A stretch of DNA of 64,000 nucleotides, from positions 2,550-66,549 of the IMG/VR virus record IMGVR_UViG_3300037511_000246, one strand, 5' to 3'. This DNA is from a virus. The notes under the pieces were generated by a model that saw nothing but the letters and a program-made list of their open reading frames with translations, was not told the origin of the DNA and did no database searches. Each line of letters begins with the position of its first letter. Within the stretch, counting starts at the first letter, position 1. Shown here one piece after another: positions 8,801 to 63,915 of this stretch. Both the position numbers and the translations under genes were made by a program.

Positions 8801-9456
8801 TTACCGTTGCTTGTGTGTATGTGCAGGGACATGTCGCGTTCACTCGTGAATATGTTCTGCGGCTGCGATCTATGGTCGCGCGGTATCTTTCGAGAGACCA
8901 CAGCTTTGTGTGCCTCACAGACAAGCCGCACCAGTTCAAAGATACGGACATCAAGGCCGTAGAAATCTCGAGACCGATGTATGGGATGTTTGGATGGTGG
9001 AGCAAGCTGCACCTCTTCGATGACTCTATTGCTGAACTGCAGAGCGGGCGCTGCATGTACTTGGACTTGGACACTCTCGTCCTGAAGACGCTCGATGTGG
9101 TAGTAGATTATCCATCACCATTCGCACTGGTGCCAGACGATGCTCCAAACTTCAGGGGCAAGATGGGGCGGCTGACAGTAAAGAAGTTCAATTCATCAGT
9201 GATGGTGTGGAATGGCGGAGAGCAGAACGCGCTCTACAATGATTTCAGGGTCGCTGTCAGTCACAGGTTGTGGGGTGACCAGGATTGGATTGGTGAGAAA
9301 GTTCCAACTGCCGACAGGATGCCTCTAGAATGGTTTCCGCGTGTATCTCAGTGCATCGCCGCTCCACCACCGGCTGCAAGAGTGGTGCTGTGCAAGAAGC
9401 CTAAGAACTATGAAGCGGCGAAAGAAATTCCTTGGGTCAGGGAGGCGTGGCAGTAA
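8797..9456 (+). CDS. nucleotide-sugar transferase-like protein (DxD motif), paralog of 10205..10939
   Basis: 'CLTDKP', 'YLDLDTLVL' (DxD) and 'VMVWNGGEQ...WGDQDWI' are shared with the downstream paralog. GT8-like character. GTGA overlap. Confidence 0.4.
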   Translation: MITVACVYVQGHVAFTREYVLRLRSMVARYLSRDHSFVCLTDKPHQFKDTDIKAVEISRPMYGMFGWWSKLHLFDDSIAELQSGRCMYLDLDTLVLKTLDVVVDYPSPFALVPDDAPNFRGKMGRLTVKKFNSSVMVWNGGEQNALYNDFRVAVSHRLWGDQDWIGEKVPTADRMPLEWFPRVSQCIAAPPPAARVVLCKKPKNYEAAKEIPWVREAWQ

Positions 9457-26355: not shown

Positions 26356-26373
26356 GATCTGAGACGTTCAAAA

Positions 26374-26413
26374 GGCCCGTCACCTTGAGTGGTGACGGGC
26401 CTTGTTCTTTATT
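26374..26413. terminator. bidirectional rho-independent terminator between convergent operons
   Basis: GGCCCGTCACC-ttgagt-GGTGACGGGCC followed by ttgttctttatt; an A-run precedes it for the opposite strand. Confidence 0.7.
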
Positions 26414-26663
26414 AGACTAGGTTCTGCAGCGAGCACATCTCGGTGTCGTAACCGAAGAGCTCCATTAGACGCATGGCGCTCAATGACATGGCGCGCAGTT
26501 CTTTGCGCAGCTTGTCAACGTCTCGATCGGAGTCGAGTATCTCCTCGTCGTCCAATTGAGATATGGCGTCTTCAAGTGTGGATAGTTGCGCATGCACAAA
26601 GCCACGTTCATACTCGCCAAGTTTCGCCGGCTTGGGTTTCTTGCTTGTCTTCTTGCTAGCCAT
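26412..26663 (-). CDS. hypothetical acidic protein
   Basis: Start at the internal ATG with RBS 'ggagacggagaac'. 83 aa. Confidence 0.4.
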   Translation of the reverse strand: MASKKTSKKPKPAKLGEYERGFVHAQLSTLEDAISQLDDEEILDSDRDVDKLRKELRAMSLSAMRLMELFGYDTEMCSLQNLV

Positions 26664-26694: not shown

Positions 26695-26723
26695 ACGGTA
26701 GCGCGCAATGCGCAGCGTTGCAA
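26695..26723 (-). promoter_or_regulatory. sigma70-like promoter (TTGCAA-N17-TACCGT) containing palindrome CGCAATGCG in the spacer
   Basis: On the minus strand: TTGCAAcgctgcgcattgcgcgcTACCGT, ~30 nt upstream of the 26663 start. Same architecture as the promoter at 55938..55967. Confidence 0.4.
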
Positions 26724-26765
26724 CGGTAATGCCCGGTGCCTAGGGCCGGCTTTGCGCCCTAGCAC

Positions 26766-26940
26766 ATGTGCGCCCGGTAGGGCAACTATTCACTGCCTAT
26801 GCCGCCTCTTTATAGCGGCGCGGCCCGGTAGCGCGGGCCTAGGCTGGCCCGGTGCCGTGGCCGGCTGGCAGGCCCGCGCCGTGGGCAGCCTAGGGCCTTG
26901 CCGCCCCATGCCCACACTGCCACGGCGCACCCGGCCAGCC
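26766..26940. repeat. GC-rich (~75%) intergenic island with degenerate GGCCCGGT / CCTAGGGC / GGCCGGCTGG repeats
   Basis: Motifs recur every ~25-50 nt. Shares the 15-mer ggcccgcgccgtggg with the second island at ~55897. Confidence 0.5.
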
Positions 26941-27666
26941 CTAGGGCGCGGCAGGCTGGCCGGCTGGCGCTGGCCCGGTGCTGGCGCTGGCCGGCTGTAC
27001 GGGCCGCAGCGTAACCGGGTCCACGGGTATCAGCGGCTCGTCCGCGCCACGGTACAGCATAGCCGGCTTGATGGCTCTGTCGCAGTTCGGGAGGTGTGCG
27101 CCGTTTGCGCCACCACACAGATTGCATGTGATCAGCACAGCCTGAGATGAACGCTCTGCTGGATGCGCATTCGAATCTGTCGCCAGTGGATTCGGTGGAT
27201 CGCCATTGTCCCATTCAACCTCACGAACTTGTCTGTCCAGTTCTGCTGAGAGCACAGCCGGCATCGTTGACGCACGTACCTGGGTCAAGTAAGAATCGAG
27301 TTCAGACAGTGCCATCTCGATATCGGCCTTTGTGCGCCACCAGATGACCAGCTTGGTGATGGTGCCTTGGAAGTAGTCGAGTTTGAACGTCTCAATAATG
27401 GTGTACAGACCAACACCAGACGACAGCCGTGCTTCGTTTGGACGACCATGCGCTTCAATGACTTCGAGATACTTCTCGAGGTAGTGTCTTGACTTCTCGA
27501 GGTCTTGCAACCCATTCTTGTTCCGCCACCTGAACAGGTACTTGGTAATATTACCTTGGAAGTAGTCGAGCGCCAGGATGGCAACCATGTCCCAGTGTTG
27601 CAGATCTGGTTTGCCGTGTGCCTTGTAGTGGTCGCCACCGACTTGTGTTGAGTTCGCGTTGGACAT
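26941..27666 (-). CDS. tandem DUF3310-domain protein with C-terminal Cys cluster and Pro/Ala-rich tail
   Basis: Two repeats of 'LDYFQGnITKyl..W' ('VAILALDYFQGNITKYLFRW', 'FKLDYFQGTITKLVIWW'). 'CNLCGG...LPNC'. RBS 'aggaggaaagtga'. Confidence 0.55.
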   Translation of the reverse strand: MSNANSTQVGGDHYKAHGKPDLQHWDMVAILALDYFQGNITKYLFRWRNKNGLQDLEKSRHYLEKYLEVIEAHGRPNEARLSSGVGLYTIIETFKLDYFQGTITKLVIWWRTKADIEMALSELDSYLTQVRASTMPAVLSAELDRQVREVEWDNGDPPNPLATDSNAHPAERSSQAVLITCNLCGGANGAHLPNCDRAIKPAMLYRGADEPLIPVDPVTLRPVQPASASTGPAPAGQPAAP

Positions 27667-35127: not shown

Positions 35128-36516
35128 TCAGTACTTCAGGAAGCCGTACTTCGCCAGGAACGGTACGAACTTCTTGACATCCTTGGCCGAGATGTCCTCG
35201 TCCGCGGCCTTCTTGACCAGCGCCTTCAGCGTGATCGTCTTGGCAGCACGCACCAGTTCCAGCAGCTTGGTCTTGCTGCCCTTCTTCGGACGCTTCTTCA
35301 CGAAGCTGATCTTGGTGCTGTCTTCCAGCTTGCCCAGCTTCTCCTTCTTCGCCGGCTTGTCCTTGACCTTCTTGTCGGCCTTCTTGGCCTTGCCCTTTTT
35401 GCCTTTCTTCACTTCGTCATCCTCCTCATCGTCGGTGTCTTCATCTTCGTCATCTTCGTCATCTTCGTCATCGCCCTTGGCTTTCTTGGCCTTGCCCTTC
35501 TTGCCCTTGGCGAAACCCTTGGACTTGGACTTCTTGCCTTTCGGCTTCTCGTCCTCGTCGTCCTCGTCGTCCTCGTCGTCCTCGTCATCCTCCGAGTCTT
35601 CATCGTCCTCGTCGTCTTCCGAGTCCTCGTCGTCGTCCTCGTCATCCTCGTCGTCATCCTTGGCCTTGGACTTCTTGCCGGACTTGGCCTTGGGCTTGGA
35701 CTTCTTGCCTTTCGGCTTCTCGTCCTCTTCATCGTCCTCCGAGTCTTCGTCCTCGTCGTCATCCTCGGAGTCTTCGCCCTCATCGTCCTCGTCATCGGAC
35801 TCGTCGTCCTCATCCTCATCCTTGTCGCCGGCAGCCTCTGCCGCAAGTGCGAGACGCTTCTCTTCCAGGTCTTCATCGGTCATGAACCGCATTTTCTTGT
35901 CCTCCTTAGATGGACGCTTGCGTGATTCGACGGGCCAATCATCAAGCACAGTGCGGTCCGTCAGCCGCAAGGTGCCCTTCTTCTCGACGGCCTTCAATGC
36001 CAGAAGCATCACGTGCCGTGCGAAATGGAAAGCTTCGGTCCATGACTTTGACGACAGCCCTAGCGGGCCTTCATCAGCTGTCAGACCTTTGTATGCCAGC
36101 GCTCCGAGTTCGTTCCATGAGCAGGTGCTCAGTATGGATACGATCTCGAACATGAACTGAGGCTCTGCCTGCTGCTTTGGCAGATACTCGCGATACTGTG
36201 GCGGCTTCTTTTCCTTGAGCTTACACAGATCGACGAAGGCATCGAATAGATTGTTCGTGAAGACATGCACCTGCTCTTCCTTGAAGAGTGCCTGCCGCAG
36301 GTCTTCACCGCGCAGACTGGTCGCCAGCTTGCGCCGCGACTTCTTGCTGGCCTTGGCTTCGTCGCGCATGCGCTTAGACCGCTTGCCTGCCCTGCGGTAC
36401 TTCTTGAGGTCCTCGTCAGTCGACGGCACAAACCCACTCTTATCCTTCTTTGGCGGGTCTGGATCGAACGGAGGATCCTCCGACTTCTTCTTACGCCGCT
36501 TTTTTCCGAAAGCCAT
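35128..36516 (-). CDS. large protein with ~200-aa N-terminal domain and ~230-aa tail of alternating poly-Asp/Glu and poly-Lys blocks
   Basis: 462 aa. RBS 'ggagaag'. Blocks such as 'DDEDDEDDDEDSEDDEDDEDSEDD' alternate with 'KPKGKKSKSKGFAKGKKGKAKKAKG'. Confidence 0.6.
   Translation of the reverse strand: MAFGKKRRKKKSEDPPFDPDPPKKDKSGFVPSTDEDLKKYRRAGKRSKRMRDEAKASKKSRRKLATSLRGEDLRQALFKEEQVHVFTNNLFDAFVDLCKLKEKKPPQYREYLPKQQAEPQFMFEIVSILSTCSWNELGALAYKGLTADEGPLGLSSKSWTEAFHFARHVMLLALKAVEKKGTLRLTDRTVLDDWPVESRKRPSKEDKKMRFMTDEDLEEKRLALAAEAAGDKDEDEDDESDDEDDEGEDSEDDDEDEDSEDDEEDEKPKGKKSKPKAKSGKKSKAKDDDEDDEDDDEDSEDDEDDEDSEDDEDDEDDEDDEDEKPKGKKSKSKGFAKGKKGKAKKAKGDDEDDEDDEDEDTDDEEDDEVKKGKKGKAKKADKKVKDKPAKKEKLGKLEDSTKISFVKKRPKKGSKTKLLELVRAAKTITLKALVKKAADEDISAKDVKKFVPFLAKYGFLKY
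35400..35830. repeat. GAN/GAY trinucleotide-like coding repeat (acidic tract)
   Basis: tcgtcctcgtcgtcctcgtcatcctc... Produces spurious mirror ORFs on the plus strand. Confidence 0.6.
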
Positions 36517-46104: not shown

Positions 46105-47358
46105 CTACTTCTTGCCGAAGCGTGAGCCCTTCTTGGACTTCACTTTGCCCTTGCCAGACTTCTTGGAAGGCTTCTCGTCTTCCTCGTCATCTTCATCGTC
46201 TTCGTCATCGTCTTCATCATCGTCGTCATCGTCGTCATCGTCGTCAGCAGCTTTTCGAGAACGCTTGCCTTTGCCGCCAGTGTCTTTCTTACCGCCGCGT
46301 CGCTTGGAAGACTTGCGATCATCTTCGTCATCGTCTTCCTCGTCTTCGTCATCATCCTCGTCGTCTTCGTCATCATCCTCGTCGTCTTCTTCATCGTCCT
46401 CATCGTCTTCTTCGTCGCGCTTGGACTTGCGCTTTTTGCCCTTGCCGCGCTTGGGCTTTTCGTCCTCGTCTTCTTCGTCTTCATCCTCGTCATCCTCCTC
46501 GTCGTCGTCATCATCCTCGTCGTCCTCATCGTCGTCATCACGACGCTTGGACTTCTTGCTGGCCTTGGACTTCTTGTCCTTCTTGCCTTTCTTGCGCGGC
46601 TTGTCGTCATCCTCGTCATCGTCCTCGTCGTCCTCGTCGTCCTCACTGTCATCAGTGCCGTCGAACGGGGTCAGCAGCTGATCGCGAATCTCCTGCTGCT
46701 TGGACTCGATGGCGCGCAGAACTTCCTTGTCCTTGATCTTCTTGTCGATGTCGAAGAGCACGACCGGGTAGTCCTCGTCTTCATCGAACGACAGTTCGAC
46801 AATGACTTCGAAGAACTCCTTGTTGAGGTTCGTGTCGCAGTCCTTGACGAAGGCTGACCAGTGCCGCAGGCTCTTCGGCGGCAGTTCGATGAACGCAATG
46901 TCTGCGTTCTCAACGTCGTCGAGATCATCCGCACTGATGACCGCAAGCCTCCGGCGGTTCTGACACTTGCCAGCAGTGCGTCCGCCCTGATAGGCCATCG
47001 GGCAGTCATCGCACGACTTGGCCTGCGGTGACTTGACGTTGTCGTGCGGTACGAGTTCGTCCTTCTCCATGTCGATGGCGAAGCACTTCGGGATGTTGCC
47101 ACCATCCTTGCTGTAGCCCTTGGCGTAGTAGGTGTTGAGATAGCAGAAATCCACCACCACGACCTTCAGCGTGCGTCCGAGGTTCTCCTGATCCAATGTG
47201 AACCGTCGGCTCTGCAAGCTGATCCTGTTCTCCAGACCGCCACCGCCGGCGGGACCCTTCTCGCGCGCATTGGCACTGCGTTTGGCCTTCTTGCCCATGT
47301 CCTTCTCCCAGTCCTTGTCTTTCGACTTGGACTTCTTCGATGTCTTCTTCATCATCAT
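46105..47358 (-). CDS. large protein with Cys-containing N-terminal domain and ~200-aa alternating poly-acidic/poly-basic tail (ssDNA-binding-like?)
   Basis: 417 aa. N-terminal ~200 aa contain 'CDDCPMAYQGGRTAGKC'. The tail has 'DDSEDDEDDEDDDEDDD' blocks interleaved with 'KPRKKGKKDKKSKASKKSKRR'. Confidence 0.55.
   Translation of the reverse strand: MMMKKTSKKSKSKDKDWEKDMGKKAKRSANAREKGPAGGGGLENRISLQSRRFTLDQENLGRTLKVVVVDFCYLNTYYAKGYSKDGGNIPKCFAIDMEKDELVPHDNVKSPQAKSCDDCPMAYQGGRTAGKCQNRRRLAVISADDLDDVENADIAFIELPPKSLRHWSAFVKDCDTNLNKEFFEVIVELSFDEDEDYPVVLFDIDKKIKDKEVLRAIESKQQEIRDQLLTPFDGTDDSEDDEDDEDDDEDDDKPRKKGKKDKKSKASKKSKRRDDDDEDDEDDDDDEEDDEDEDEEDEDEKPKRGKGKKRKSKRDEEDDEDDEEDDEDDDEDDEDDDEDEEDDDEDDRKSSKRRGGKKDTGGKGKRSRKAADDDDDDDDDDEDDDEDDEDDEEDEKPSKKSGKGKVKSKKGSRFGKK
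46180..46640. repeat. GAN/GAY trinucleotide-like coding repeat (acidic tract)
   Basis: Long runs of tcgtcatc/ctcgtcgtc within 46105..47358. Confidence 0.6.
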
Positions 47359-55123: not shown

Positions 55124-55375
55124 TTAGCGCGCCCAGTTGATAATGGCGTTAGTACCCTTCTCGTCTCCACCTGAGATGTGGGCGCGAGTTCCCTGTTCAG
55201 CAAACTGAACTTCTACAATGCTCTTGGCAACCCACACTTCCCTGAATGAGACGTTCTCATCGGAGCATGTGGCAGTCAGAATGTTGCCAATGTAGAACAC
55301 TTTCCATCCGAGCGCTAGAAAACCGCGCCTCTTCAATTCTGTGCGCAGAAACTTCGACATTGAGTTCTTATCCAT
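55124..55375 (-). CDS. hypothetical protein
   Basis: Preceded by the conserved 25-nt leader (copy 3). 83 aa. Confidence 0.45.
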   Translation of the reverse strand: MDKNSMSKFLRTELKRRGFLALGWKVFYIGNILTATCSDENVSFREVWVAKSIVEVQFAEQGTRAHISGGDEKGTNAIINWAR

Positions 55376-55400
55376 GATCGTCTCCTATGAGAGGTGATGG
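55376..55400 (-). promoter_or_regulatory. conserved 25-nt 5' leader / RBS element (copy 3 of 3)
   Basis: CCATCACCTCTCATAGGAGACGATC then ATG (minus strand). Confidence 0.5.
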
Positions 55401-55937
55401 TTGTGGAGTCAGGTGCTCCGCGTAACAGCACGCATGCTGCTATGCGGAACACCCGACAGACTTTGCTATTGTCTATCGGGCATTACCGTTGCTTTGTACC
55501 CGGTTGACGCGACGTAGCCGTGCCGTCGAAAGATGCGCTGCTGCGATGAGAGGCCGTCTTGCCAGCTTGGCCGATATGGCGAAGAGCTGATTTGCTAGAC
55601 AGCACACTGGCATCAATCCGCCGTGCTACATGTCGTCTCGTTGATTTCTGCCGGCCTGCGTCCCGGCTGATGCGTTGCTTGCCGCACCACGTACTAACAA
55701 GTTCATACCTTGTTAGTGCTGCCACCGCTTGCGCCGCTTGGAGCGGCCCGGCTCTGTGCGCCGGAGTACCATGCTAGGGTTAGGGTTCAGGAGGCTGGCT
55801 TGCGCCGTGGCCGTTTCAAGAGCGCGGCGCATAACGCCTGACCGCTCGCCTGTACCGCCCTTCGGCTAGCCCTTGCGCATTAGGCTGGTACGTTTGGGCC
55901 TGCGGCCCGCGCCGTGGGTTAGCTAAACCCACACCTT

Positions 55938-55967
55938 ATTATAGGTCCGCAATGCGGGCCGTTGCAA
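55938..55967 (-). promoter_or_regulatory. strong sigma70-like promoter TTGCAA-N18-TATAAT, with CGCAATGCG palindrome in the spacer
   Basis: Minus strand: ccgTTGCAAcggcccgcattgcggaccTATAATaagg. Points toward the ~550-nt ORF-less region and gene 55124..55375. A second, weaker TTGCAACGGCCCACATTGCG copy lies at ~56011-56031. Confidence 0.5.
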
Positions 55968-56119
55968 CGGTACTGCCGCACAGTTTTTCGCAATATAAGG
56001 CATTGCAAAACAATCACTTAGCGCAATGTGGGCCGTTGCAAGGCCCTGCCGGCAGGGCCTAGGCCGTACCGGCCGAGAACCATGCCCTACGGGCCATGCA
56101 CAGATGCGTAGATGCCTAG

Positions 56120-58457: not shown

Positions 58458-58742
58458 TCAAGCTGCACGATTGTCCTCCTTAGCCAGTTCGATCTCACCA
58501 TACAAGATGGAGGCTACTGCCCTCACCTCTTTGCGGTTCAGTTCCAGCTTCTTAGCAATGTTGTCCATGTGCGTACATGTCGTCTTCTCTGAGACATCGA
58601 GTAGCTGCGACACTTCCCTGCATCCCATGCCATGTGCCAGCAACCTCATCACTTGAAGTTCTCGAGGCGACAGCAGATGCTCAACACAGATCTTTCCGTC
58701 TTGCGTTGCCTTGCTGGTAATCACGATCACTTCCCTGCCCAT
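58458..58742 (-). CDS. LuxR/GerE-family HTH transcriptional regulator
   Basis: 'LSPRELQVMRLLAHGMGCREVSQLLDVSEKTTCTHMDNIAKKL' is the canonical GerE HTH. Confidence 0.75.
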   Translation of the reverse strand: MGREVIVITSKATQDGKICVEHLLSPRELQVMRLLAHGMGCREVSQLLDVSEKTTCTHMDNIAKKLELNRKEVRAVASILYGEIELAKEDNRAA

Positions 58743-60953: not shown

Positions 60954-61547
60954 TCATAGCGCGCCCACTGCCAGCTTCTCGCGCAGACCCATCCAAAGTC
61001 TGCCTAGCATGTTCTGGCCCTTCTTATCTGGTCCCCATCCCCAGAAACTGTCGCGCCATGAATTCTCGATGAGAGTGCGCATCCCTGTCTCGAGCAACTT
61101 GCGCCGCACATACTCATGCTGATGAATCTTCAGCACAAGAATCCGCATCATCACGTCCACCTTCTCGTTGTTCCAGTTCGGACGCTGTAGTTCCTTGCGC
61201 CCTTGCGCAAAGGTATAAGCGTCATGCGCGGAACGAGCCATGCGCACAACGCTCTGCGCGCCAGCTCCACCACATACGTCAAAGCGGCTCCAGTGGTAGG
61301 CATGCTCCACAGTGGGAAAGACGATACCCTTGTAGTCCACGGCGAATGCAGAGAAGTTCGACAGGACGTAGAACTCCTGCTCATAGAAGAACACCTGATT
61401 CTCCGTATCCAGTCCATGATGCTTCTCCTGCTCTGTGCGCAGGTTCCATCCAGCCTCGAAAGCCATGCGCCATGCATCAGGTGCATTGCCGCCATCCTGA
61501 TTCCACTTCCGATATGCCTCTTCGACAGCAGTAGTGCTCACGTTCAA
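60954..61547 (-). CDS. NADAR (YbiA/DUF1768) domain protein
   Basis: 'FYVLSNFSAFAVDYKGIVFPTVEHAYHWSRF' and 'ENSWRDSFWGWG...NMLGRLWMGLR' match NADAR. Confidence 0.65.
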   Translation of the reverse strand: MNVSTTAVEEAYRKWNQDGGNAPDAWRMAFEAGWNLRTEQEKHHGLDTENQVFFYEQEFYVLSNFSAFAVDYKGIVFPTVEHAYHWSRFDVCGGAGAQSVVRMARSAHDAYTFAQGRKELQRPNWNNEKVDVMMRILVLKIHQHEYVRRKLLETGMRTLIENSWRDSFWGWGPDKKGQNMLGRLWMGLREKLAVGAL

Positions 61548-61807
61548 TCCTCCCCATTAGCGATCCGCGCCAGTATGTCACCATGACATGCTTTTGGAGC
61601 GCACCAGCAACCGAGTATCTTGCCCTTCAATTCCTTCTTAGCCCGTTTGATGAGCTCCGGCTGTTTCTTCAGCCACTTCTCATACTTCCTGATCGTCTGT
61701 TTGCGATTGCCATCACGATAGATGACAAACGGATTTCCCCAAGGACCTGGACGACCGATATAGACATCGTGCTTCTCACGCTTGCAGTGGACAACACGCT
61801 TGTTCAT
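61544..61807 (-). CDS. DUF4326 domain protein
   Basis: 'YIGRPGPWGNPF...KILGCWCAPKACHGDIL' is the DUF4326 signature. Confidence 0.6.
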   Translation of the reverse strand: MNKRVVHCKREKHDVYIGRPGPWGNPFVIYRDGNRKQTIRKYEKWLKKQPELIKRAKKELKGKILGCWCAPKACHGDILARIANGED

Positions 61808-63915
61808 GTCCGAACCTTCCCGCCGAACTTCTTCGCATGCGTTGTGTAGTGCTCAGCCCATTCACGATTCTTCTTGCTGTCCCATTTGTCCTTGTTGAAC
61901 AGGCAGTACAGCCACATCGCCTTCGAGGTAGCGCTCACGCGCACCTGTCGGCGCTCTATGTTCGCGTCGTTCAACATCCTTCCCAGACGCTGTATGGTGA
62001 CGTTGAAGCGATACTTGGGGTACAGCCGCTCGAACAGCCGCAGCAGGTCCTCGGCGCGATAGAGATGCAGGTCTGGCAAATGGCCGTCCACCATCATCAA
62101 CATCTCCGCGTCTGTCCGCACTCTATCAACAAACTCGCCAAGCTGATCCTTGCCAAGCCCGACCAGTCCGGCCTTCCACTCCGTCTTCATGACGTCTGCC
62201 TTCGGATTGAAGTCTCCCACGTCTACCTCGTTCAACAGGTAGTGCAGTATGTGTGCAGGGCCATCACCTCGCCGCACGTACTCGTCCAGTTCGTCGTACA
62301 CTGTCTGGTCGAGCTTCTCGGTCGGCGCCTCAATCACGAAGATGCGACGGTCGTTCTTGTCGATGATCAGAGCGTCGCTGTGGTTCGACGTGAAGTAGTA
62401 GTTGCAGTGGTCAACGTAGTCGACCTCTGGCTGAAATTTCTCGTTCACTGACACGGTATCGCGCGTTATCATGTCGTTGACCGCGCCCATCAGTGCCTTG
62501 CGATCGGCGAAGTCAGACAGGTAGATCTCGTTCGTCACCACCATCTGGCTGCGACCCGCATAGGTGTTGTACACGCCATTCAAAGAAGCGTTCTTTAGAC
62601 GCTTGAAATTCTCTTTCCCGTATATGTACTCCATCACTGGATCCACCGCAAAGGTCTTACCTATGCCTTGCTTGGCACCATAGACGAATACTGCCTGAAA
62701 GAGCTTCGCTCCCGGATGCTGTACAGGGTACGCCAGCCATTTGAGAAACCACTCGACGTACTCCGGCTTCCGGAAGATGTAGTGAACGAGATCGAGCCAC
62801 ATGGCAGGCTTCTGCTTCTTGGGTCGCACCACTGTCGGCTTCCACAGGTTCATGTCGTTGTCTTCCGTCATCTCCGGCGCACCCGGCTCATATATCACGC
62901 TCTTGACGGAACGCCTATGCTGCGACTTTCCCCATAAGTCGATTACCAGCGCTGTCTGCTTCGGGCCGATCATCTCCTCGCCCTCATTCATGAACGTCTC
63001 GCGTGCATGATAGAAGCTGCGAAAGAACTTCCGCGCCTTGATATCGAAGAACCGCATCTCGTCTTCTACATAGCAGATCTTGTCGTTGAGAGCATTGATG
63101 CGACTATTGGCCCTGTACTCCTGTCGCGGCAAGTCTGCAAACGCTTCCGCGCCGTGCTCTATCAGGTAATCATCAAGGCCCGTCTTGGGGCCTGCGGTCT
63201 CCGCGTCGAGCATCACGAAGCTGATGGACTTGGGCGAGTACTCTTTTGTGAGTGTGAGCGCCAGCCCTGTAAGAGCGTCGCGCACTTCGGACTTGAGCAT
63301 GACGTCTGCGTCATAGCAGATCTCCACTTCCCTGTCCGCCCATTTGAATTGAGTGAGCTCTGGGATGAGATCCCAAAGCCTCTTCTGCGACTTGTATCCG
63401 TACACGCCACCGAGCGCTATGCATGGAATGCCGAGCTTGCATGCCAGCGCCGCCTTCTTCTCGCCCTCAGTGATGAGGATCTTCTGCTCGATGTCTCCCG
63501 CCACCTTCTTCCAGTTCAGGTAGGGAGCAAGGTACACATGTGGACTTGAGTTTGAGGGCTGTGAATAACGGAAGCTTCCGCCCTTCTTGGTAAAGCCTCC
63601 CTTCTTCGATTCCAGAAAGCGTACTCTGGAATACGAGATCTTCTTCCCTGAGAAGTCAAAGTACGGAATCCGATAACTGGATCGTGGTTCACCAACATAG
63701 GAATCCGTCTCGTCGCGCGAGAGTACTTCCAGTTGGAGTTTCCTGAAATCCTTCTCGGTCAAAGAACTCCGCTTTAGATCCTCCAATGCTGCTTCTAGCA
63801 GTTCATCACGGTCTACACTGTTGGTATCCCTACCTTTTGTCTTTCCACCCTTGCGCTTCTCAGACTTCCGGATTCCGTGTTCCGGCTTCTTTGCTTTCTT
63901 TTTTCCAAACGACAC
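61804..63915 (-). CDS. primase-helicase (Toprim primase domain + D5/P4-like SF3 helicase P-loop)
   Basis: 'ILITEGEKKAALACKLGIPCIALGGVYGY' (Toprim) and 'VYGAKQGIGKT' Walker A with a downstream D5-like region. 703 aa. Confidence 0.75.
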   Translation of the reverse strand: MSFGKKKAKKPEHGIRKSEKRKGGKTKGRDTNSVDRDELLEAALEDLKRSSLTEKDFRKLQLEVLSRDETDSYVGEPRSSYRIPYFDFSGKKISYSRVRFLESKKGGFTKKGGSFRYSQPSNSSPHVYLAPYLNWKKVAGDIEQKILITEGEKKAALACKLGIPCIALGGVYGYKSQKRLWDLIPELTQFKWADREVEICYDADVMLKSEVRDALTGLALTLTKEYSPKSISFVMLDAETAGPKTGLDDYLIEHGAEAFADLPRQEYRANSRINALNDKICYVEDEMRFFDIKARKFFRSFYHARETFMNEGEEMIGPKQTALVIDLWGKSQHRRSVKSVIYEPGAPEMTEDNDMNLWKPTVVRPKKQKPAMWLDLVHYIFRKPEYVEWFLKWLAYPVQHPGAKLFQAVFVYGAKQGIGKTFAVDPVMEYIYGKENFKRLKNASLNGVYNTYAGRSQMVVTNEIYLSDFADRKALMGAVNDMITRDTVSVNEKFQPEVDYVDHCNYYFTSNHSDALIIDKNDRRIFVIEAPTEKLDQTVYDELDEYVRRGDGPAHILHYLLNEVDVGDFNPKADVMKTEWKAGLVGLGKDQLGEFVDRVRTDAEMLMMVDGHLPDLHLYRAEDLLRLFERLYPKYRFNVTIQRLGRMLNDANIERRQVRVSATSKAMWLYCLFNKDKWDSKKNREWAEHYTTHAKKFGGKVRT

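Follow-up and report, generated by a model that had tools for sequence, protein, structure and literature searches.

In lambda (OR1-OR3/PR) and in the P22 and 434 immunity regions, pseudo-symmetric operators of ~17-19 bp cover the -35 hexamer and spacer of a sigma-70-type promoter, and more operators placed in tandem upstream allow cooperative binding of dimers. In P4, which has 8-bp type I iterons, the alpha protein binds iterons in both ori and crr. GOLLD, ROOL and OLE (Rfam; PMC12286853) are RNAs of ~500-800 nucleotides (nt) with many helices and GNRA-type loops that were recognized by covariation and whose function is unknown; two of them (GOLLD and ROOL) are phage-borne. ColE1 RNA II, a folded replication primer of ~550 nt, is transcribed by the host RNA polymerase from a sigma-70 promoter in a replication region. 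Here we describe a locus that resembles each of these systems in part. It lies in a 64,000-nt stretch of uncultured phage DNA (positions 2,550 to 66,549 of IMG/VR record IMGVR_UViG_3300037511_000246; hereafter "the window", numbered from its first base), where a minus-strand array of repeats near 56.0 kilobases (kb) precedes a long gene-free region. We assign a probability of roughly 0.55 to the reading that this array holds one conserved promoter embedded in a dyad, and not tandem promoters, and that a protein bound at the dyad gates this promoter, with a large structured RNA as the product.

With the lambda-type regions, the locus shares the placement of a candidate operator over the -35 hexamer and spacer as well as further sites in tandem upstream; it differs in that no cI/Cro-type or other regulator gene adjoins it, the sites are spaced by 33 and 41-42 bp and not by ~23 bp, it is predicted to be transcribed into a large structured RNA, another site stands alone ~29 kb away, and no lysogeny module is present in the regions examined. 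As in P4, the phage encodes a superfamily 3 (SF3)-type primase-helicase, the repeats adjoin its gene and a second locus is found elsewhere in the genome. Unlike in P4, the sites are 19-bp dyads, the proximal site lies within a promoter and a winged-helix domain could not be shown in the phage primase. The RNA resembles GOLLD, ROOL and OLE in length, in its many helices and GNRA-type loops, in the way it was recognized and in its unknown function, and it is phage-borne as are the first two, but it matches neither these nor any other Rfam 15 family in sequence or structure, has four clear members so far, and no terminator was found for it. It also differs in lying not near tRNA islands but in the replication module of GC-rich phages. 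The likeness to ColE1 RNA II is one of size and setting only, i.e., a folded RNA of ~500 nt downstream of a sigma-70-type promoter in the replication region of a phage that encodes a family A (Pol I-like) polymerase; the phage has its own primase, and there is no evidence here for an R-loop, RNase H processing or an antisense RNA I.

Relatives of the locus were found through neighboring proteins; L-numbers are labels of loci retrieved from relatives or other records. While L004 is identical to the window, L003 encodes a UDP-glucose dehydrogenase (UDPGDH)-like protein and an AAA_5 ATPase with 66% and 91% identity to those of the window, respectively, and AAA_5 identities are 66% for L031, 64% for L029 and 56-62% for the IMG/VR loci L041, L037, L039 and L035. 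L063-L065 are loci from an NCBI metagenome assembly. The array is syntenic, between the primase-helicase gene and the AAA_5/DUF7192 genes, in 8 relatives (L003, L029, L031, L041, L037, L039, L035 and L063). A gene-free gap of 480-770 nt was found at the syntenic place in every relative, with the promoter array at its head and the primase-helicase gene adjoining it either directly (in L037 and L041 this gene abuts the array) or after a variable set of small genes. In the window, the array directly follows the stop codon (56120) of the UDPGDH-like gene and the next convincing gene start is at 55375; the ~745 nt in between hold only arginine-rich, non-conserved open reading frames (ORFs). Relatives of the UDPGDH-like gene outside the lineage (L001, L002, L005 and L023-L028; 50-61% identity) showed neither the gap or GC-rich island nor the motif. 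The features of the array are as follows:

56042-56119, minus strand: GC-rich hairpin-forming spacer from the UDPGDH-like stop codon (56120) to the first dyad, read from sequence
56022-56040, minus strand: distal dyad TGCAACG-GCCCA-CATTGCG, putative auxiliary site; best -10 only 3/6, without A2
56009-56021, minus strand: inter-dyad block CTAAGTGATTGTT, conserved; relatives carry (G)TAAGTGnTTGTT, with more divergence in L029, L035 and L063
55989-56007, minus strand: middle dyad TGCAATG-CCTTA-TATTGCG, putative auxiliary site; spaced by 33 bp from the distal dyad (upstream) and by 41 bp from the proximal dyad (downstream)
55938-55972, minus strand: core promoter, with TACCG at 55972-55968, -35 TTGCAA at 55967-55962, an 18-bp spacer and -10 TATAAT at 55943-55938
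55966-55948, minus strand: proximal dyad TGCAACG-GCCCG-CATTGCG, centered near -26

A first-pass annotation of the sequence had proposed tandem TTGCAA-type promoters here, with a 9-nt palindrome in every copy as operator for a dimeric regulator. For each copy we tabulated the -35 hexamer, the best -10 hexamer at 16-19 bp and the symmetry of the arms in seven genomes; L035 and L063 were examined separately. The proposed proximal promoter is present in the window (promoter scan 10/12), its core is identical in L003, and the -35 and -10 hexamers are kept in L029, L031, L041, L037, L039 and L035. TTGCAA-N18-TATAAT occurs in the window, L003 and L041; the variants are TTGCAA-N19-TATAAT (L029), TTGCAA-N18-CATAAT (L037), TTGCAC-N18-TATAAT (L039), TTGCAA-N17-CAATAT (L031) and TTGCAC-N16-TAGAAT (L035), and L063 is aberrant. 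Hence spacers are 16-19 bp, mostly 18, and TTGCAA (4/6 matches to TTGACA, with TTG kept) is invariant in six genomes, with TTGCAC in L039 and L035. The proximal -10 hexamer scores 5-6/6 in six of the seven tabulated genomes; L031 scores 3/6, retaining A2 and T6. These data support the proximal copy as a credible sigma-70-type promoter. The distal and middle copies, on the other hand, never exceed 3/6 at -10, their candidate hexamers are not conserved, and several of them start with CTGCAA, such that the -35 hexamer is damaged while the dyad is intact; the promoter interpretation is thus supported for the proximal copy and not supported for the other two.

The repeat itself is non-random. The 20-nt pattern TTGCAACG-N5-CATTGCG (≤2 mismatches) has four matches in the window, all on the minus strand, as compared to 0.20 expected, and none of 100 shuffles reached four copies. 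Three copies are exact (56041-56022, 55967-55948 and 26723-26704) and one (56008-55989) carries two mismatches. The distal copy, TTGCAACGGCCCACATTGCG at 56041-56022, lies 74 nt upstream of the proximal copy (start to start), in agreement with the ~70 nt annotated, but the tandem array holds a third, degenerate copy in the middle, TTGCAATGCCTTATATTGCG at 56008-55989, which had been overlooked. The strong copies (55977-55948 and 26733-26704) are 87% identical over 30 nt, including an upstream GGCAnTACCG, and both motif regions are GC-rich as had been stated (0.70 at 26801-27200 and 0.61 at 55601-56000, vs. ~0.54 elsewhere). Conversely, the 9-nt palindrome CGCAATGCG occurs exactly twice in the window (26704-26712 and 55948-55956), as compared to 1.6 expected; it is not enriched and is found in only two of the four copies, with CACATTGCG in its place in the distal and TATATTGCG in the middle copy. 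A motif search, which the annotation had suggested as a check, was therefore favorable for the 20-nt pattern and unfavorable for the palindrome, which consists of the right arm of a larger dyad plus flanking sequence.

The true symmetry is a 19-bp dyad with a 7-5-7 arrangement, TGCAAYG-N5-CRTTGCA, whose left arm is the -35 hexamer minus its first T. Across 17 sites, the GCAA and TTGC cores are nearly invariant, and the central N5 varies freely. The arms match at 7/7 positions in the proximal dyads of L029 (TGCAACA-ACCCC-TGTTGCA) and L031 (TGCAATG-AGGGG-CATTGCA), and in L035 (TGCACCG-CAAAG-CAGTGCA) a switch from GCAA to GCAC is found in both arms. Start-to-start spacings of 33 bp and 41-42 bp are kept in L003, L031, L029 and L041. 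The distal dyad is kept in L003 and L031 (as CTGCAA...) and is degenerate in L029. When 10-20 kb per relative were scanned for dyads (threshold, ≥12 of 14 specified positions), the array sites and essentially nothing else were recovered. As the arms co-vary while N5 is free and the spacing is conserved, the dyad reads, on sequence grounds, as the signature of a sequence-specific dimeric DNA-binding protein. The idea of a symmetric operator for a dimeric regulator hence survives in altered form, with the arms changing together in L029, L031 and L035 and with the 19-bp dyad in place of CGCAATGCG.

Other palindromes occur nearby. The spacer upstream of the distal dyad contains a 20-nt perfect palindrome, AGGCCCTGCCGGCAGGGCCT (56060-56041); this spacer is poorly conserved in L003, and no minus-strand T-tract terminator was called in it. 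A 12-nt palindrome, CCGTTGCAACGG, is regarded as incidental, because it is not conserved in L029 or L031. In the subgroup-2 phages (L037, L039, L041 and L063; see below), 1-3 copies of a TGCTCA-N5-TGAGCA palindrome, which is absent from the window, lie directly upstream of the array (L041 3690-3745, L037 4567-4590 and L039 1092-1185) and may represent a second operator type. Motif matches in unrelated DNA were discarded: the 16 matches of an 18-mer scan in genome contigs of unrelated phyla are about the chance number and show no homology by nhmmer (likewise L006), and the IMG/VR matches L056, L059, L060, L061 and L062 are attributed to chance, L061 lying inside a 470-amino-acid (aa) ORF.

Downstream of the -10 hexamer, the window and L003 are far more similar in DNA than are the flanking proteins, and their differences follow the pattern of RNA helices, i.e., stems are retained while loops vary. 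The following features were assigned to the predicted transcript:

55415-55932, minus strand: structured non-coding RNA; start inferred near 55932, 6 nt after the -10
55932-55914, minus strand: 5' hairpin (RNAalifold)
to 55758, minus strand: 5' multi-helix domain
55748-55650, minus strand: central hairpins
55637-55506, minus strand: large 3' domain
55504-55485, 55481-55451 and 55450-55415, minus strand: helices 22, 23 and 24
55477-55492, minus strand: 16-nt RNA segment GCAACGGUAAUGCCCG, perfect complement of minus-strand 26735-26720
55376-55414, minus strand: unstructured tail with a repeated ribosome-binding cassette (CCATCACCTCTCATAGGAGACGATC; repeat family D10) before the ATG at 55375

RNAalifold analysis of four homologues (the window, L003, L029 and L031) gave 141 pairs in 24 helices, 51 of these pairs with double-sided compensatory changes. 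Paired cells amounted to 94.6%, as compared to 82.8% in shuffled alignments and 33-43% when pairing partners were slid; for pairs with double-sided changes, the corresponding numbers were 51, 19 and 5-11. None of 500 shuffles attained any of the observed pairing measures. In the first hairpin, placed directly at the predicted start, the stem covaries and the UAGCU loop stays constant (UGGGUU/AACCCA, CCCGCC/GCGGG and UCGGGG/CCCUGA). Moreover, the window RNA alone has a minimum free energy z-score of -4.0, and the consensus is better for the sense strand (-152.7 vs. -138.7 kcal/mol), with 50 G.U cells. The homologues share no stop-free reading frame, and of 36 indel runs just 4 have a length divisible by three. 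Rfam 15, which covers GOLLD, ROOL, OLE, tmRNA, RNase P and introns, gave no gathering-threshold match in the window and no relevant match at permissive cut-offs in the window or six relatives (E ≤ 5 on the window locus and E ≤ 0.5 on five relatives), and ARAGORN was negative for tRNA and tmRNA. Overall, these data indicate that the promoter drives a large structured phage RNA of a family absent from Rfam, and not a protein gene, as far as comparative sequence analysis can tell. No minus-strand intrinsic terminator was found between 55932 and 55376, and the RNA is thus probably a leader or processed RNA that is co-transcribed with the downstream operon.

In subgroup 2 (L037, L039, L041 and L063), the non-coding region is just as long and also GC-rich, and some hairpins in it covary; a global consensus fold was not supported for this subgroup, the covariation term being positive. 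When metagenomes and IMG/VR were scanned for conserved blocks of the RNA, either the L029 contig alone or no match was recovered. The beginning of helix 24 is also found in L035, where the equivalent of this helix carries an insert (L035 3267-3367) that resembles a tRNA acceptor/T-arm minihelix (CCGGGTTCGACTCCCGG), with sub-threshold Rfam matches to mascRNA and tRNA-Sec (E 0.13-1.4) and a negative ARAGORN result. A tRNA or tmRNA identity of the RNA itself was rejected, ARAGORN being negative and this minihelix in L035 being the only tRNA-like, sub-threshold signal.

The fourth copy of the repeat defines a second locus near 26.7 kb, with the following features:

26736-26940, minus strand: second GC-rich island (~70% GC), between the gene at 26941-27666 and the solitary dyad
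26695-26735, minus strand: solitary dyad element, CGGGCATTACCG, then TTGCAA (26723-26718); weak -10-like TACCGT at 26700-26695, 17-bp spacer
26722-26704, minus strand: solitary dyad TGCAACG-CTGCG-CATTGCG
26412-26663, minus strand: 83-aa ORF; no family match and no homologue in the retrieved loci of relatives
26372-26403, no strand assigned: strong bidirectional intrinsic terminator with a 13-bp stem, exactly at the convergence of the two gene arms

TTGCAA-N17-TACCGT at 26723-26695, which had been annotated as a promoter ahead of the ORF at 26412-26663, is indeed present, but it was not called by the promoter scan (7/12). The motif scan of IMG/VR recovered the equivalent locus of the L029 phage (L057), where a GC-rich island of ~300 nt is followed by TTACCG-TTGCAATG-CTTAT-TGTTGCG, also at the arm convergence. 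L057 has no -10 hexamer and no gene, and an intrinsic terminator directly follows the dyad; the islands of the window and L057 align over the dyad element only. As L057 keeps the dyad without -10 and gene, the conserved feature of the second locus appears to be a DNA site and not a promoter. The second island (26885-26820) and the 5' half of the RNA (55918-55743) share three collinear blocks (15/15, 19/23 and 9/9 nt). These could mark a decayed partial copy of the RNA, a reading set aside here since they are only short GC-rich words that neither nhmmer nor the covariance model detects.

Taken together, the reading that we favor for the array is that of a single host sigma-70-type promoter (TTGCAA-18 bp-TATAAT), with the -35 hexamer and spacer inside a 19-bp dyad that a dimeric DNA-binding protein most likely occupies. 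Given the 18-bp spacer, the proximal dyad extends from roughly -35 to -17, a repressor-like position at which binding would compete with RNA polymerase, so that the protein would most likely repress the promoter or set the timing of its activity. The distal and middle dyads, at distances of ~3 and 4 helical turns (33 and 41-42 bp), are probably auxiliary sites for cooperative binding. Transcription would start near 55932, first giving the ~520-nt non-coding RNA, and, as no terminator lies between the RNA and the next gene, would probably read through into the replication-gene operon (AAA_5 ATPase, DUF7192, ligase and DNA polymerase). The copy at 26.7 kb would be a solitary instance of the same protein site, its weak -10 before the small ORF being fortuitous. 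We infer use of the host RNA polymerase, start site, binding, direction of regulation, read-through and any function of the RNA from this arrangement.

Several observations weigh against this reading. The RNA structure rests on four sequences and was derived from those same four; a covariance model of its 5' domain finds only these training members, and homology with subgroup 2 is hence unsupported. Sigma-70-like consensus matches in the genome number 7, as compared to ~11 expected; as the consensus scan does not discriminate in this genome, the promoter assignment rests on conservation. The proximal dyad of L063 has a 5-nt insertion between its arms, and at L057 the dyad occurs without a promoter, where a transcription factor would have no obvious target. 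The binder is a further difficulty. The only recognizable DNA-binding domain among ~20 small early proteins is that of a 94-aa protein (58458-58742), a genuine GerE/LuxR-type helix-turn-helix protein that the first-pass annotation had offered as a candidate. Its gene does not co-occur with the dyad across relatives: by tblastn it was found, besides the window, in L003 only; the early regions of L029 and L031, although fully covered, lack it, as do L037 and L041, and all four carry the dyad. The binder may be a host protein or an unrecognized phage protein.

In the main rival reading, unlikely in our view, the dyads would serve as iterons of a replication origin to which the phage primase-helicase, or another initiator, binds; the array would be the origin, the solitary dyad a second cis site (as in P4 ori/crr), and the promoter and RNA would serve origin activation or priming. 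Its main argument is L057, which is in keeping with a generic site for a protein: there are two loci per genome, and in the L029 phage promoter features are missing from the second. Only the DUF3854/DUF5906 primase-helicase and the AAA_5/DUF7192 pair are always encoded beside the array, and in L037 and L041 no other gene separates the primase gene from it. Whereas an iteron-type origin would have at least three initiator sites beside an AT-rich unwinding element, two to three sites in the same orientation and with roughly helical spacing accompany only a short local AT-rich stretch (~45 nt) in GC-rich DNA. [quoted passage not shown] A winged helix could not be substantiated here, however: searches with Pfam and NCBIfam recognized no DNA-binding domain in the primase, the AlphaFold model has a predicted local distance difference test score (pLDDT) of 37, and neither a protein search nor a PDB profile search gave a match. 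GC skew gives no origin signal, the 24-helix covarying RNA far exceeds what transcriptional activation of an origin needs, and the proximal dyad sits exactly over the -35 hexamer and spacer of the conserved promoter in all genomes, as expected for an operator. By the same observation we consider it highly improbable that the copies act as RNA-level repeats, i.e., as hairpins of 7 bp with 5-nt loops in read-through transcripts of the upstream operon that signal processing, stability or termination; 6-7 of 7 arm positions can pair in most copies if G.U is allowed, and three copies (window middle, L029 middle and L057) reach 7/7 only as RNA, but the arms (GCAA/TTGC) are nearly invariant and not merely complementary, which points to sequence-specific recognition, and no U-tracts follow the copies.

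The remaining alternatives concern how transcription would be controlled. The original model of two or three tandem sigma-70 promoters with CGCAATGCG operators for the LuxR-type protein, duplicated at 26.7 kb, has become improbable. TTGCAA is found in all window copies, the 94-aa protein is of the right type and LuxR-type dimers bind dyads of ~20 bp; yet only the proximal copy has a conserved -10, the palindrome is confined to half of the copies without enrichment, the second-locus counterpart in L057 is not a promoter, and the gene for this candidate binder is missing from four relatives with the dyad. We give similarly little credence to a MerR-type activator, which would sit between the -35 and -10 hexamers of a promoter with an over-long spacer and activate it through DNA untwisting. 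An operator inside an unusually long spacer is the defining feature of MerR-type promoters (PMC3431237); here the dyad lies within the spacer, overlapping the -35, and most genomes have spacers longer than the optimal 17 bp (18 bp in five genomes, 19 bp in L029). The spacer nevertheless varies over 16-19 bp (16 in L035 and 17 in L031), whereas MerR-type activation depends on 19-20 bp, a perfect TATAAT at 18 bp from the -35 would be expected to function unaided, the upstream auxiliary dyads would have no role, and there was no MerR-family protein among the proteins scanned. A sigma-54 (RpoN) -24/-12 promoter, GGCA-N6-TTGCA, at the strong copies, with the upstream copies as enhancer sites, is refuted for practical purposes. 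GG and GC stand at the correct GG-N10-GC spacing in the two strong copies of the window, but the -24 GG is present only there and is lost in every relative, L003, L029 and L031 included (GCTAG, GCCAG, CCGCT), while flanking bases are conserved; furthermore, matches to the consensus with three mismatches are near background (145 vs. 122) and no Sigma54_activat domain was found.

A possible link between the two loci is provided by the 16-nt RNA segment at 55477-55492. Its complement, minus-strand 26735-26720, lies immediately upstream of the solitary dyad and overlaps it, and this match is the sole Watson-Crick complement of at least 14 nt between the RNA and the entire minus strand of the window. 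The homologous segments of the L029 phage (L029 ~9154-9169 and L057 ~935-920) pair at 16/16 positions, with one G.U and a double change from A.U to G.C. Nine of the 16 nt form the TACCGTTGC common to all proximal sites and the other seven are specific to the second locus; the RNA segment is also base-paired within the RNA's own predicted fold. The complementarity could reflect pairing of the RNA in trans or a protein site of 16 bp that occurs in two mutually inverted copies. We regard as rather doubtful the more far-reaching hypothesis that a new large, ornate phage RNA (~520 nt) acts in trans on the second dyad locus, serving as a guide or antisense RNA that connects, physically or functionally, the promoter of the replication module with the genome convergence point; if true, the RNA could control read-through, termination or replication where the arms converge.

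A promoter with an operator is ordinary biology, yet it would provide a usable handle on gene timing in a lineage of uncultured phages without characterized relatives, whose DNA polymerase shows at best 37% identity to that of any deposited phage. The RNA is the more valuable result. Few large structured RNAs lack a known function, with GOLLD, ROOL and OLE as the familiar examples. Here, an RNA of ~520 nt with 24 predicted helices, clear covariation and no Rfam family keeps its place in the replication module among phages in which neighboring proteins have diverged to 64-66% identity. A new RNA class with a promoter, a candidate operator and a candidate 16-nt pairing target would be directly testable.

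The window represents most of the genome of an uncultured tailed phage, with two convergent gene arms that meet at ~26.4 kb. The minus arm encodes the DUF3854/DUF5906 primase-helicase (61804-63915), a family A DNA polymerase, a SNF2 helicase, the AAA_5 ATPase and DUF7192. DNA-level similarity searches of deposited phages and plasmids gave no match, and the best protein identities to cultured phages were 37% for PolA and 41% for AAA_5. No tRNAs were found in the window, and GC skew tracks gene orientation. In L004 (436-1143), the phage continues ~1 kb past the window end (beyond 64000), with a divergent intergenic region of 707 nt that precedes the primase gene and presumably serves in early control; the dyad is absent from this region. 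Just after the primase gene, DUF4326 and NADAR genes are adjacent (60954-61807, minus strand), and NADAR is kept in L003, L029 and L031. Two long ORFs (35128-36516 and 46105-47358, minus strand) contain Asp/Glu-rich repeats with a 9-nt periodicity that alternate with Lys-rich stretches, and these supply the largest repeat families of the window (D1-D5). Outside the studied locus, L039 3072-3130 gave a sub-threshold match to the type II hammerhead ribozyme (29 bits vs. a gathering threshold of 37; E 0.09). Finally, a cassette of ~40 nt (AACCATCACCTCTCATAGGAGACGATCATG) is found at three gene starts on the minus strand (55407-55368, 54599-54560 and 52855-52816), and its CCUCU might base-pair with AGGAG, the Shine-Dalgarno sequence; blocks of the type CCATCA...AGGAGAC...ATG are also present in L003 and L029.

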